Source of the DNA: Candidatus Margulisiibacteriota bacterium
Lineage (GTDB): Bacteria > Margulisbacteria > WOR-1 > O2-12-FULL-45-9 > XYB2-FULL-48-7
Assembly: GCA_041650855.1 (NCBI GenBank)
Contig: JBAZKJ010000002.1
Location: 284,280-348,279 of the forward strand
Length of the DNA: 64,000 nt
Direction of reading: 5' to 3'
Positions within the stretch are counted from its first letter, which is position 1. Each line of letters starts with the position of its first letter. The notes below the pieces were generated by a model. The model was not told where the DNA came from and ran no database searches. It was given only the letters and a program-made list of their open reading frames with translations. Both the position numbers and the translations under genes were made by a program. Shown here piece after piece: positions 16,102 to 20,061 of the stretch.

Positions 16102-17253
16102 ATGAAAAAATGGAATTTGTTGCTTGGGCCTTGTTTGTTTTTGGTGCTTTGTTGCTTGTTGTTTACCCTTACCGGTTGCGGCGGGGGCGGAACGGCGGCG
16201 ACCACGACCACGATCGCGCCGACGACCACGGCGGCGCCGGCCACGACCACCACGACCGGCACCTCTGCCACGACCACTACGACCGGCTCGTCGCCAACGA
16301 CGACCGCCGCCCCGGGTACAACCACAACCACTACAACGACCAGCACCACGACCACGACCTTGACCCCCGGCAGCGTTTGGACCCAGGCGACCGCTGAAGC
16401 CGCGTTCTCTGGTAGGTCCGGGCAGTCCAGCTTGGTGTTTGACAACAAGATCTGGGTGATCGGTGGCATGGGGGCTGGTTCGATCGGGCTAAAGGATGTT
16501 TGGAATTCGAGCAACGGGGTCAACTGGACCAGGGTGACGGACGAGGCGGCGTTCGGCCCTAGGAGCGACCATGGCAGCGCCGTCTTCCTGAACAAAATGT
16601 GGGTTGTCTGCGGCCGAGACCCGTCCGTTTCTTATTCGAACGACGTCTGGTCTTCCAGCGACGGCGTCTTGTGGGAAAGGGCAACGGCCGAAGCGACCGG
16701 CATTGCCAGATGGCGCCCATCCGTGATCGCGTACGATAATAAGCTCTGGATCATCGCCGGTTATACCAGCGACGATGTTCCGACCAACGAAGTCTGGAGT
16801 TCGGCCGACGGGATTATCTGGGAATGCGTCACTCGGGAAGCGGCGTTCGAGCCCAGATTCAGTGCCGGCGTGGTTTCCTTCGAAGGGAACGTCGGCTTGA
16901 TGGGCGGTTATAATAATTATACGTCCACTTATTTTAACGACGTCTGGTTAACTCAGGACGGAACGAACTGGGCGAAACTCGCGCCGACGGCCGATTATTC
17001 CGCCAGGGGCGGACAGACCAGCGTGGTTGCCGCCGGCAAGGTTTGGCAGATCGGCGGCGATAACGGCGGGGTGCTGCATGACGTTTGGAATATCAGCAAC
17101 GTTGACAATACCTGGACGGAAGTGACTGCGGCGGCGGCGTTCAGCGCCCGGGGCAGCCACAGCAGTGTCGTTTTTAATAATAAACTGTGGGTCATCGGCG
17201 GTTGGAATGGGAGCGCCGCCTTGAACGATGTCTGGTATTCACCCTTGCCATAG
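16102..17253 (+). CDS. Surface lipoprotein with Thr-rich stalk and Kelch-type beta-propeller
   Basis: Signal peptide plus lipobox LTGC, then [27 protein letters not shown] stalk, then ~6 Kelch-like blades (…IWVIGG…DVWNSSNGVNWTRV…). Confidence 0.65.
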   Translation: MKKWNLLLGPCLFLVLCCLLFTLTGCGGGGTAATTTTIAPTTTAAPATTTTTGTSATTTTTGSSPTTTAAPGTTTTTTTTSTTTTTLTPGSVWTQATAEAAFSGRSGQSSLVFDNKIWVIGGMGAGSIGLKDVWNSSNGVNWTRVTDEAAFGPRSDHGSAVFLNKMWVVCGRDPSVSYSNDVWSSSDGVLWERATAEATGIARWRPSVIAYDNKLWIIAGYTSDDVPTNEVWSSADGIIWECVTREAAFEPRFSAGVVSFEGNVGLMGGYNNYTSTYFNDVWLTQDGTNWAKLAPTADYSARGGQTSVVAAGKVWQIGGDNGGVLHDVWNISNVDNTWTEVTAAAAFSARGSHSSVVFNNKLWVIGGWNGSAALNDVWYSPLP

Positions 17254-17284
17254 CTAACCTTTCCCTTGCTGGTCAGGTTGAAGG

Positions 17285-18907
17285 TTGCGTATAAATAATA
17301 GGGGGGAAATGTTAGTGAATATTAAATTGGCGGGCTTCGTTGGTTTGGTTGGCGCTTTTTGTTTTCTGCTCATAACCGTTTCCGGTTGCGGCGGAGGCGG
17401 GACGGCGGCCACGACGACCACGATCGCGCCGACGACCACGGCGGCGCCGGCCACGACTACCACGACCGGCAGCTCCGCCACGACCACCACGACCGGCTCG
17501 TCGCCAACAACGACCGCCGCGCCGGGGACAACTACCACGACGACGACCGGCACGACCACGACGACCGCCGCGCCGGGGACAACTACGACAACTACTATGA
17601 CCAGCACGACCACCACGACGATCGGCACATTGACGATCACGATGGTCCCGGCTTCCGGCTCGCTCGAGGCGAACAGCATACCGGTGACGATCGAAGCGAA
17701 CGCCGGCGGCGCCACGATCTATTACACAACCGACGAATCGACCCCGACCACGGCTTCGCTGGTCTATTCCGGCCCGATCACGGTCGAAACCTCGCAGGTC
17801 ATCAAGGCCAAGGCTTTCATGGCCGGTTGGACGGACAGCGCCGTCGGGACCAGGAATTATGACCTCTACTGGTGGCAGCCGCTCGGTTCGGGTTTGAGTA
17901 GCGGCGGCTGGGGATATGCGCTTTATTGCGATGGAGCGAACGGCCTCTACGTTGGCGGTGATTTTACTTCTGCCGGCGGGGTTAACGCGGCCAATCTTGC
18001 CAAATGGAATATCGCCCTCCAAACCTGGGAAGCGGTGGGCAATACGGCGTCAGATGTTAATGATATGGTCTGGGCGATCGACGGGATCGGTTCGGCGCTT
18101 TACATCGGCGGAAAATTTACCGCGCCGGCCATAAAGGTCGCGAAATGGGAAAGCAGCGCCTGGTCGGCATTGGGCGGCGGGCTTGATAAAAATGTCCAAG
18201 CTCTGGCGCACAACGAAGCCGGCAGATTATTCGCCGGCGGCGTCTTTACAACAGAGGTTGGTTGGGCCGCGGAAAGCATGATCGCTTACTATGAGAGCGG
18301 CCATTGGAACAATATGACCAACGGCCTTAATGACTCGGTCTCGGCGATGGTTTACGACGGAATTGGGAGTTTATATGCCGGCGGGGCTTTTACCTGCGAA
18401 GCGATCGGCGCTTCATCATTAAGCCGGGTCGCGTATTGGAACGGCAGCTGGCACAATGTCGGCAGTGAGATCCCTGATACCGGTTCCAATACTGTTTATG
18501 CCTTAGCTCTGGATGCGGCCAATAACCTTTATGCCGGCGGCACGTTTATTGTCACCAGCTCGGGTTATTATCAATATTTGGCCAAGTGCAGCGATCCGGC
18601 CGGGACGCCGGCCTGGAGCGCGCTGGGAAATCCGAACGGGGTGGTCAACGCGCTGAAAATGGCCGGTAACGGCGCGTTGGTCGCCGGCGGAGACTTTACC
18701 TCGATCGACAGCGTTACTGTCAACCATATTGCCATCTGCCTTAATCCCGGGACTTCTCCGCAGTGGCAAGCTATCAGTAACGGAACGGACGGGAATATCA
18801 TGGCCGTTGCCTTTGACAGCAGCGGGAATCTTTATGTTACCGGCGGTTTCACCAAAGCGGGGGATGTAACAGTCAATTATGTCGCCAAATGGGGGAAGAA
18901 ATTTTAA
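17285..18907 (+). CDS. Surface lipoprotein with Thr-rich stalk, CHB_HEX_C/Fn3-like module and unclassified beta-propeller repeats
   Basis: Lipobox VSGC and a stalk identical to the neighbours. A GATIYYTTDESTPT module, then 7 repeats of LY(V/A)GG(D/A)FT. Confidence 0.6.
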   Translation: MRINNRGEMLVNIKLAGFVGLVGAFCFLLITVSGCGGGGTAATTTTIAPTTTAAPATTTTTGSSATTTTTGSSPTTTAAPGTTTTTTTGTTTTTAAPGTTTTTTMTSTTTTTIGTLTITMVPASGSLEANSIPVTIEANAGGATIYYTTDESTPTTASLVYSGPITVETSQVIKAKAFMAGWTDSAVGTRNYDLYWWQPLGSGLSSGGWGYALYCDGANGLYVGGDFTSAGGVNAANLAKWNIALQTWEAVGNTASDVNDMVWAIDGIGSALYIGGKFTAPAIKVAKWESSAWSALGGGLDKNVQALAHNEAGRLFAGGVFTTEVGWAAESMIAYYESGHWNNMTNGLNDSVSAMVYDGIGSLYAGGAFTCEAIGASSLSRVAYWNGSWHNVGSEIPDTGSNTVYALALDAANNLYAGGTFIVTSSGYYQYLAKCSDPAGTPAWSALGNPNGVVNALKMAGNGALVAGGDFTSIDSVTVNHIAICLNPGTSPQWQAISNGTDGNIMAVAFDSSGNLYVTGGFTKAGDVTVNYVAKWGKKF

Positions 18908-20061
18908 CCGGCAATAAGAACAGGGAGTTCGGGCTTATTGTTTGTTTGCTGTGTATTGCTTGTTACTTTTTAATTAACCTGACTGGTTGCGGCGGGGGCG
19001 GAACTGCGGCGACCACGACCACGATCGCGCCGACGACCACGGCAGCTCCGGCCACGACCACCACGACCGGCAGCTCTGCCGCGACCACCACGACCGGCTC
19101 GTCGCCAACGACGACGACCGGCCCCACGACCACAACTTCGGCTGCCACGACAACTACAACAACTACAACTACGACAACCACGACCACTCCCCCCCCGGAA
19201 ACTTACGGTTTTGACAGCAAATGGGGGAGCTATGGGACAGGAGAAGGGGAATTTAGATCGCCGGCCGGGATAGCTGTCCTGCCGAGCGGCGGGGACGTTT
19301 TTGTCAGCGACACAAGCAATAATCGGGTGCAAAAATTCACTTCGACCGGCGCATTTATCGATAAATTCGGCACGTTCGGTACCTTTGAGGCCAATTATAA
19401 AAATCCGAACGGGCTCTGTTTTACCAGGACTTATGATACTTTTCTGGTCGCGGATAGAAGCAACCACCGGTTCGTTGAACGGAGTCTTGATGGTAGTGCT
19501 CCAGAGGTGTGGGGAACGCAGGGGACCAGCGACGGTCAATTGGATTATCCGCGTGATGTGGGGGTAGAGGGGGCATTAAATCAGGCTTTTGAAGTTGATG
19601 CCGCCAGGGTCCAAGTGTTCGGCGCACATACCGGTGCTTTTATTAGGAGATGGGGAACAGGCGGTGCGGCGCCGGGGCAGTTTGATTCGCCCTGCGGCAT
19701 CGCGGTCGATCGCACCGCTCAATGGGTCTACGTTGCCGATACCGGTAATCACCGGGTCCAAAAATTCAGTTTTTACGGCACGTTTGAGGCAACCTGGGGA
19801 TCGTATGGGTCAGGCAATGGTCAATTTCATTCTCCCAAGGGGATAGAAGTAGATACTGACGGCAACGTTTATGTGGCCGACACCTTGAACCATCGCGTCC
19901 AGAAATTTAATCCAACGGGGAGTTTAATGGCGATCTGGGGAAGTTACGGAACCGGGGATGGTCAGTTTGTCACCCCGGAAACGCTGGCCGTTTACGGAAC
20001 GAAAGAGGTTTATGTGGCCGATACCGGCAATCACCGGATCCAGAAGTTCGTAAAGCAATAA
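18889..20061 (+). CDS. Surface lipoprotein with Thr-rich stalk and NHL-repeat beta-propeller
   Basis: Lipobox LTGC and the same stalk. Repeated NHRVQKF / NHRIQKF NHL motifs. Confidence 0.65.
   Translation: MGEEILTGNKNREFGLIVCLLCIACYFLINLTGCGGGGTAATTTTIAPTTTAAPATTTTTGSSAATTTTGSSPTTTTGPTTTTSAATTTTTTTTTTTTTTPPPETYGFDSKWGSYGTGEGEFRSPAGIAVLPSGGDVFVSDTSNNRVQKFTSTGAFIDKFGTFGTFEANYKNPNGLCFTRTYDTFLVADRSNHRFVERSLDGSAPEVWGTQGTSDGQLDYPRDVGVEGALNQAFEVDAARVQVFGAHTGAFIRRWGTGGAAPGQFDSPCGIAVDRTAQWVYVADTGNHRVQKFSFYGTFEATWGSYGSGNGQFHSPKGIEVDTDGNVYVADTLNHRVQKFNPTGSLMAIWGSYGTGDGQFVTPETLAVYGTKEVYVADTGNHRIQKFVKQ

Follow-up and report, generated by a model that had tools for sequence, protein, structure and literature searches.

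The stretch of DNA analysed here (64,000 nucleotides of contig JBAZKJ010000002.1, assembly GCA_041650855.1, from a Candidatus Margulisiibacteriota bacterium; hereafter the window) encodes three neighbouring genes, here termed A, B and C, for putative lipoproteins that each place a threonine-rich stalk between a lipobox cysteine and a beta-propeller. We show here that the three genes share a block of 135 nt that spans the lipobox cysteine codon and the proximal part of the stalk, that their DNA is more similar over this block than its peptide and codon usage can account for, and that this similarity has sharp edges. The block is best read as a product of past gene conversion between the tandem neighbours, a reading to which we assign a probability of about 0.6, while the observation itself is real and statistically robust. 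The genes and repeated elements lie as follows:

16102-17253, + strand: gene A, an open reading frame (ORF) called in the ENA record; lipobox LTGC, Thr/Ala/Pro stalk, Kelch beta-propeller (above the Pfam cutoffs)
16174-16308, + strand: copy A of the shared block; Cys codon at 16177-16179, followed by 43 stalk codons; nearest of the three copies to their consensus; 2 private differences
16177-16362, + strand: whole stalk of A, 62 codons from the Cys to the last Thr run
17309-18907, + strand: gene B, from ORF, Pfam and AlphaFold2 (AF2) evidence; signal peptide with VSGC, the longest stalk, a CHB_HEX_C_1/Fn3_assoc Ig-like domain and a Rax2/DUF5122-like beta-propeller
17384-17518, + strand: copy B of the shared block; Cys codon from 17387; 7 private differences
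17510-17619, + strand: in-frame tandem duplication in the B stalk, 2.1 copies of 51 nt with 86 % matches
18889-20061, + strand: gene C, from ORF and Pfam evidence; signal peptide with LTGC, stalk, NHL propeller of the six-bladed type
18985-19119, + strand: copy C of the shared block; Cys codon from 18988; 6 private differences

The original prediction, made from the letters of this stretch, had described near-identical blocks starting at 16174, 17384 and 18985, and the motif GGTTGCGGCGG is recovered at exactly these positions, with one additional, unrelated match at 8798. A repeat search of the window likewise returns a three-copy direct repeat family (16131-16358, 17341-17568 and 18942-19169), the copies being spaced 1.2-1.6 kb apart. 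The block opens 3 nt before the lipobox Cys codon and runs for 132 nt, or 44 codons, from that codon. Over these 132 nt the identity is 93.2 % between A and B, 93.9 % between A and C and 90.2 % between B and C, so that the repeat is real, its degree being 90-94 %; the encoded peptides agree in 41-43 of 44 residues per pair. The peptide ends in (S/T)SA(T/A)TTTTGSSPTTT and had been predicted correctly except for C, which reads SSAATTTT. Fifteen sites vary within the block, each of them private to one copy, and since 12 of the 15 lie at third codon positions, the peptide is under purifying selection.

The edges of the block are sharp in MAFFT and in pairwise alignments. Counted in bins of 30 nt from the Cys codon, 7-16 of 30 positions are identical at -90 to -31, 16-21 at -30 to -1, 25-30 at 0 to +119 and 7-14 beyond +180. 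Over the 60 nt of signal-peptide DNA that precede the Cys codon, identity is no more than 53-62 %, and further upstream no alignment is possible. Thus, of the common anchor that had been proposed for the three proteins, they have the lipobox cysteine and the stalk in common but not the signal peptide. Downstream, a complete divergence had been described. This is true of the heads, but the stalks of A and B are homologous to the stalk end and differ in length because of the 51-nt duplication in B, and only C departs after codon 44. Stalk length thus evolves by slippage or unequal exchange, as the duplication shows.

Each of the three heads falls into a Pfam family of its own, in agreement with the view that unrelated propellers follow the stalks. 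Gene A matches Kelch models (PF24681/PF01344) with 102.1 bits (cutoff 50) and 84.4 bits (cutoff 20.1), and gene C matches NHL (PF01436) with 128.1 bits (cutoff 20) across 4 stretches and contains a repeated DNA motif at a spacing of 141 nt; both propellers had been named correctly. In gene B the CHB_HEX_C-like module is borne out (CHB_HEX_C_1, PF13290, 60.7 bits, cutoff 22; Fn3_assoc, 55 bits), whereas the propeller behind it, which had been left unclassified, matches the Rax2 C-terminal propeller (PF12768) with 63.2 bits (cutoff 28.8). An AF2 model of B from a seven-sequence alignment is all-beta with a predicted template modelling score of 0.71; its predicted local distance difference test (pLDDT) values are 70-94 from about residue 125 and 33-55 through the stalk. 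Foldseek relates this model to beta-propellers at a probability of 1.0, among them the periplasmic sensor domains of Bacteroides BT4663/BT4673, CylK and WD40 proteins.

The stalks are of low complexity and their Thr codons are almost exclusively ACC and ACG, hence a control for composition and codon bias is essential, as the original prediction had itself pointed out. With the peptide held fixed and codons drawn independently from the stalk usage (20,000 draws), the expected identity is 77.9 +/- 2.9 % with a maximum of 89.4 %, and all three observed identities lie above every single draw. When the stalk peptides are shuffled with their composition preserved, the best register of 40 residues yields no more than 28 matches, versus 38-39 observed, and the back-translated peptide pattern has four matches in the window, all on the + strand, versus zero expected by chance. 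Where two copies encode the same residue they use the same codon in 74-88 % of cases, chance being about 33-41 % as estimated from the Thr codon frequencies. The fourth match to the pattern lies in a further gene, D, which provides an internal control:

1716-2288, + strand: gene D, an ORF with a GTG start that overlaps the pyrG stop; signal peptide with LSGC, diverged stalk at 1791-1946, C-terminal part of about 110 residues

This gene had been thought to carry a more diverged version of the same stalk, and it does, with 14 residues in common with A-C. Within this 14-residue motif, D matches A-C at 33-35 of 42 nt and A-C match one another at 39-41 of 42 nt. The same peptide in the same genome is here encoded with a DNA identity that is only at the level of the codon null, which shows that the same peptide does not automatically receive the same codons. 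The excess DNA identity of the block, the unalignable flanks and the D motif at null level together argue that recombination or gene conversion explains the block better than composition does.

Relatives in other genomes indicate what the stalks were before they became alike. The closest relatives of B with the same architecture (P0046, P0087, P0091 and P0094, one of them partial) are 39-43 % identical to it, and in all of them a lipobox is followed by a Thr/Ser-rich stalk. These stalks differ in length and can be aligned neither with that of B nor with each other, whereas the remainder of the protein aligns well. Likewise, Kelch relatives of A (P0141, P0160, P0163 and P0165) have a lipobox and Thr/Ser stalks that are mutually unalignable. 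As judged from these relatives, which carry a lipobox and a Thr stalk of other sequence, the lipobox-stalk-propeller design is ancestral to both the A family and the B family and older than the cluster. In the neighbourhoods of the B homologues (L080-L085) and of one A homologue (L088-L090), the stalked lipoprotein gene stands alone, and there is no synteny. An array of similar genes was seen in a metagenome locus (L086, 6325-11154, JGI Ga0598269_0007347), where at least five genes in tandem encode a lipobox, a Thr/Ala/Pro stalk and a Kelch propeller; one Kelch relative of gene A is a member of this array. Here the signal peptide SFWFLGC is conserved and the stalks have diverged, which is the reverse of the pattern in the window. 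The diverged stalks of the homologues and of this array suggest that stalk DNA normally drifts freely.

Copies of the block itself were not found elsewhere. In 596 Gb of species-representative genomes the back-translated pattern has two matches only, both low-complexity look-alikes in Actinomycetes; in JGI metagenome contigs it matches 75 loci, and BLAST with the block gives low-complexity matches of 72-82 % there, without true copies, the source contig not being part of that collection. NCBIfam holds no model for the N-terminal module. A comparison of gene C with 1.84 billion representatives is uninformative about stalks, as giant proteins with multiple NHL repeats dominate the list.

We therefore favour a scenario in which the stalks pre-existed and were then homogenised, since the homologues of A and B carry lipoboxes and differing Thr stalks of their own. 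Each product would be exported, receive its lipid at the lipobox Cys and display a distinct beta-propeller at the tip of a Thr-rich stalk of 60-80 residues; the stalk, predicted to be disordered, would act as a spacer or tether and may be O-glycosylated. Non-reciprocal homologous recombination between the neighbours, perhaps seeded by the ACC/ACG-rich low-complexity DNA, would have homogenised the existing stalks of A-C over the first 44 codons from the Cys, and the copies would afterwards have gathered mostly synonymous private changes. Gene conversion or cassette shuffling, described as ongoing, had been proposed at the outset. The recombination part of this proposal is upheld by an identity beyond the codon null. 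The shuffling of cassettes onto a common module is not, as relatives of A and B already have their own lipobox and Thr stalk, and neither is the word ongoing, because with private variable sites and incomplete identity of same-residue codons the copies have diverged measurably since their last homogenisation. Several points weigh against gene conversion as we propose it. A divergence of 6-10 % means that the homogenisation is not very recent, and with only three short copies conversion is not formally separable from a one-off transfer of a module. No sister genome was found for a comparison of stalks within and between genomes, and the DNA that was read, about 84 kb consisting of the window and 10 kb on each side, is a limited share of a genome whose contigs measure at least 431-708 kb. 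Moreover, glycosylation, lipidation and localisation of the trio are read from sequence.

Such a one-off capture, in which illegitimate or homologous recombination placed one lipobox-plus-stalk segment on three propeller genes with no such segment or a different N-terminus before, is the first alternative to be weighed, and we regard it as unlikely, if worth keeping in mind. It would account for unrelated heads behind sharp block edges, and the erp genes of Borrelia have been described as evolving in this way (PMC10016077). However, the relatives of A and B make it very probable that the recipients were stalked already, and neither the signal peptides nor the upstream DNA are common to A-C. 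In addition, C shares the proximal 44 codons while A and B share the whole stalk, which suggests several exchanges with differing end points.

Programmed variation, in which the direct repeats would serve as substrates of phase or antigenic variation that re-assort signal peptides, heads or silent cassettes, seems very improbable to us. Three direct repeats of 135 nt at such close spacing in likely surface-protein genes do invite the idea, and a deletion between them would yield in-frame chimeras. Yet A, B and C are complete genes, each with its own start and signal peptide, and recombination between direct repeats is an irreversible deletion and not a switch. The same proteins are moreover found in two assemblies: A and C occur identically on two contigs, B is identical to NCBI MFA5113882.1 from a Candidatus Margulisiibacteriota metagenome-assembled genome, the window is part of ENA ERZ27247363 contig k141_3012766, B stands alone in its 90 % cluster, and no variants of the proteins were found in the databases. 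Silent cassettes, which the original prediction had suggested looking for, were not found: the pattern occurs in the window only in four complete + strand ORFs, with no truncated, promoterless or inverted copies, and the extra 10 kb on either side (20 kb in all) contain no further stalks. Neither a recombinase nor an invertase, integrase or reverse transcriptase appears in the gene tables and Pfam scans of the window and its flanks, in which ORFs below 180 aa between 27 and 51 kb were not all scanned. The mismatches are not adenine-specific either, as the 15 variable sites involve all base pairs. A diversity-generating retroelement was thus rejected for want of a reverse transcriptase and an adenine pattern, and an invertase or shufflon for want of a recombinase and inverted repeats. 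There is accordingly no support for programmed cassette shuffling or for phase variation.

Still less credit is due to an origin without any recombination, by which purifying selection on the peptide together with codon bias or position-specific codon preference would have kept the copies alike. The stalk is 60 % Thr with nearly uniform codon choice, and 12 of the 15 differences are synonymous, so that the peptide is constrained; but the codon null and the D motif already largely refute this account, and the stalks of homologues and of the L086 paralogues diverge freely. A constraint from RNA structure was rejected as well, since folding of the block is ordinary (z-scores of -0.4 to -1.7, not significant) and no Rfam family matches it. 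Least credible of all is an artefact of assembly or annotation, whether through a repeat that was collapsed or made chimeric or through a non-coding element. In its favour, the DNA is GC-rich and of low complexity, gene callers drop D and truncate C, and ARAGORN places a 91-nt tRNA-Asp inside copy A (16170-16260, - strand). Against it, 8-13 positions separate the copies from one another, and the longest stretches of exact identity between them, 29-44 nt, are well short of the k=141 that the contig name implies; all three frames run unbroken into well-supported domains, and the same proteins lie on two contigs. The tRNA call was rejected as a false positive from GC-rich low-complexity DNA because an Rfam cmscan at E<=1 gives no tRNA match at this place.

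The genes of the trio are co-oriented, and their co-transcription is plausible in view of a promoter match and an AAGGAG (16090-16095) upstream of A, the absence of any terminator-like site found between A and B, and the start of C, which overlaps the end of B by 19 nt. Gene B has an alternative TTG start at 17285. The promoter match is one of consensus only and is not evidence of function:

16026-16054, + strand: sigma-70-like promoter match upstream of A, TTGACT-17-CATTAT with a TG

On inspection of the sequences, made with no dedicated predictor, A, B, C and D each start with a charged n-region and a hydrophobic h-region or core, followed by a lipobox of the form [LVI][ASTVI][GAS]C (A, MKKW...LFTLTGC; B, ...FLLITVSGC; C, ...YFLINLTGC; D, VKKTSW...FFILSGC). 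The stalks of these four proteins comprise about 50-80 residues, of which about 60 % are Thr and the remainder Ala, Pro, Gly and Ser. Five further lipobox candidates, all of them without a Thr stalk, came out of a rough regular-expression scan of the window, and the stalk thus marks a subset of the lipoproteins. Directly upstream of the trio lies a cluster (6324-15765, + strand) that resembles a Mrp-antiporter-type, complex-I-like membrane-bound [NiFe] hydrogenase; it contains two Proton_antipo_M genes, Oxidored_q2/q3/q6, Complex1_30kDa/49kDa-NiFeSe, NADHdh and 4Fe-4S genes, and its last gene is that of a HycI maturation protease.

What the stalks do can be approached from their composition. 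They are Thr/Ser/Pro-rich and of low complexity, as mucin-like segments are, and the likeness to mucin-like linkers that had been noted before agrees with a Thr content of about 60 %, although the Pfam Mucin model (PF01456) scores 28.0 bits in gene A, under its cutoff of 34.7. The best inference is that the stalk may be a flexible and possibly O-glycosylated spacer that would keep ligand-binding propellers at a distance from the lipid-anchored membrane. A more far-reaching idea, which we consider quite improbable, is that the shared block could be a lineage-specific tag for surface export and glycosylation on varied propeller heads, the repeats driving frequent in-frame deletions or fusions that re-assort the heads in natural populations; such a role would parallel the lipoprotein export signal of Bacteroidota or the Borrelia tether. 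MacB_PCD/FtsX (LolC/E-like) permeases, four paralogues arranged as two pairs, are also encoded in the window, along with an ATP-binding cassette ATPase, a LolA-like protein, an AsmA-like protein and a TolC/HlyD/MacB efflux set (44910-51290, 37771-39981 and 53709-57837, all + strand; the LolA-like and LolC/E-like genes lie in the first of these ranges). This gene content points to a diderm envelope with Lol-type lipoprotein trafficking. The enzymes Lgt and LspA (and Lnt) are not among the genes in the 84 kb.

Several known systems resemble the trio in part. Lipoprotein linkers of E. coli are short and varied, and they are not known to be about 60 % Thr or to be shared between genes at the DNA level. 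About half of the E. coli lipoproteins destined for the outer membrane have a disordered segment after the lipidated Cys whose disorder the study describes as critical for sorting (El Rayes et al., bioRxiv 10.1101/2021.01.05.425367; later Nat Chem Biol 2021). The segment resembles the stalks, which are likewise predicted to be disordered directly after the Cys, and LolA-like and LolC/E-like genes are present in the window. The nearest documented parallel is the Erp family of Borrelia, which has been described as descending from one promoter, leader and localisation sequence that became linked to many bodies of separate origin, recombination being frequent (PMC10016077). The Erp proteins of B. 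burgdorferi (OspE/OspF/Elp, on cp32 prophages) share the residues after the Cys and continue into unrelated bodies, as A-C do, and recombination among the members is documented. In contrast to the trio, however, they have a common promoter, leader peptide and sorting sequence of 5 residues, and their genes lie on multiple prophage plasmids, whereas A-C are chromosomal tandem neighbours that share the Cys and 43 Thr-rich stalk residues. A common promoter and leader of the Erp type is not found in A-C, where identity before the Cys is 53-62 %.

The trio also has counterparts among proteins with glycosylated low-complexity regions. Ser/Thr-rich disordered regions of streptococcal PrsA, PBP1a and other proteins are O-glycosylated, which protects some of them from proteolysis (PMC12041528), and mycobacterial lipoproteins are O-glycosylated by Pmt (PMC5673659). 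The likeness lies in extracytoplasmic Ser/Thr-rich low-complexity segments of membrane-anchored proteins; in contrast to A-C, the streptococcal regions tend to be C-terminal, and no glycosyltransferase is linked to A-C. The H.8 proteins Lip and Laz of Neisseria are otherwise unrelated lipoproteins that share a lipobox and, behind it, an N-terminal region of low complexity rich in Ala and Pro (AAEAP). According to PMC6277709, Laz carries a lipid modification and the H.8 epitope, and in gonococci it is not exposed at the surface. The stalks of A-C differ from the H.8 region in composition, and A-C stand in tandem whereas the genes of Lip and Laz do not. The Vlp/Vsp/Vsa systems of Mycoplasma and VlsE of Borrelia have dedicated switching, by site-specific inversion or by silent cassettes that feed one expression site. 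They resemble the trio as lipoprotein gene clusters with a conserved 5' portion and a variable remainder that were shaped by recombination, but the features of switching were not found at the A-C locus.

In a little-studied phylum, the trio thus adds a fresh instance of two things known from elsewhere: lipoproteins tethered by disordered Thr-rich linkers, and tandem genes that evolve in concert. Precedents are well known and no long-standing question is opened, which makes the finding a fairly ordinary one. If gene conversion holds, the trio would be a clean, small case of concerted evolution restricted to a disordered linker among genes with non-homologous bodies. The combination of lipobox, Thr stalk and propeller would then be a surface or periplasmic design that recurs in Margulisbacteria and related uncultured lineages.

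Lipoproteins with such stalks seem to be easily mis-annotated. The library entry for gene C (P0364) is a 244-aa product from an internal GTG (19327-20061, + strand) that has neither the signal peptide nor the stalk nor the first NHL blade, and gene D is missing from the ENA gene table, where the only entry at its place is a 55-aa ORF on the minus strand. Search tools are affected as well, for in a protein search with the stalk alone (56 aa) the bias filter discarded all 97 word candidates. As the stalks mislead gene callers and searches in these ways and also gave rise to the false tRNA, such proteins are probably under-annotated. The C-terminal part of D, of about 110 residues, has no Pfam or NCBIfam match, and a single-sequence AF2 model of D is uninformative (pLDDT 41). 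Beside gene D, genes with Ni_insertion (LarC-like) and AIRC (LarB-like) domains (2319-4051, - strand) suggest synthesis of the nickel-pincer cofactor.

Two further repeat-containing regions of the window were observed. Genes at 21819-24617 and 41974-44901 (both + strand) encode paralogues of about 930-975 aa whose DNA is alike in several patches, at about 70 % identity (repeat families D5, D6 and D11), and for which there is only a marginal match to YkuD (L,D-transpeptidase). A tRNA cluster at 63404-63670 (+ strand) consists of tRNA-Arg(GCG), tRNA-Ser(GGA) and tRNA-Ser(CGA), the two Ser genes forming a repeat family with 78 % identity (D12).

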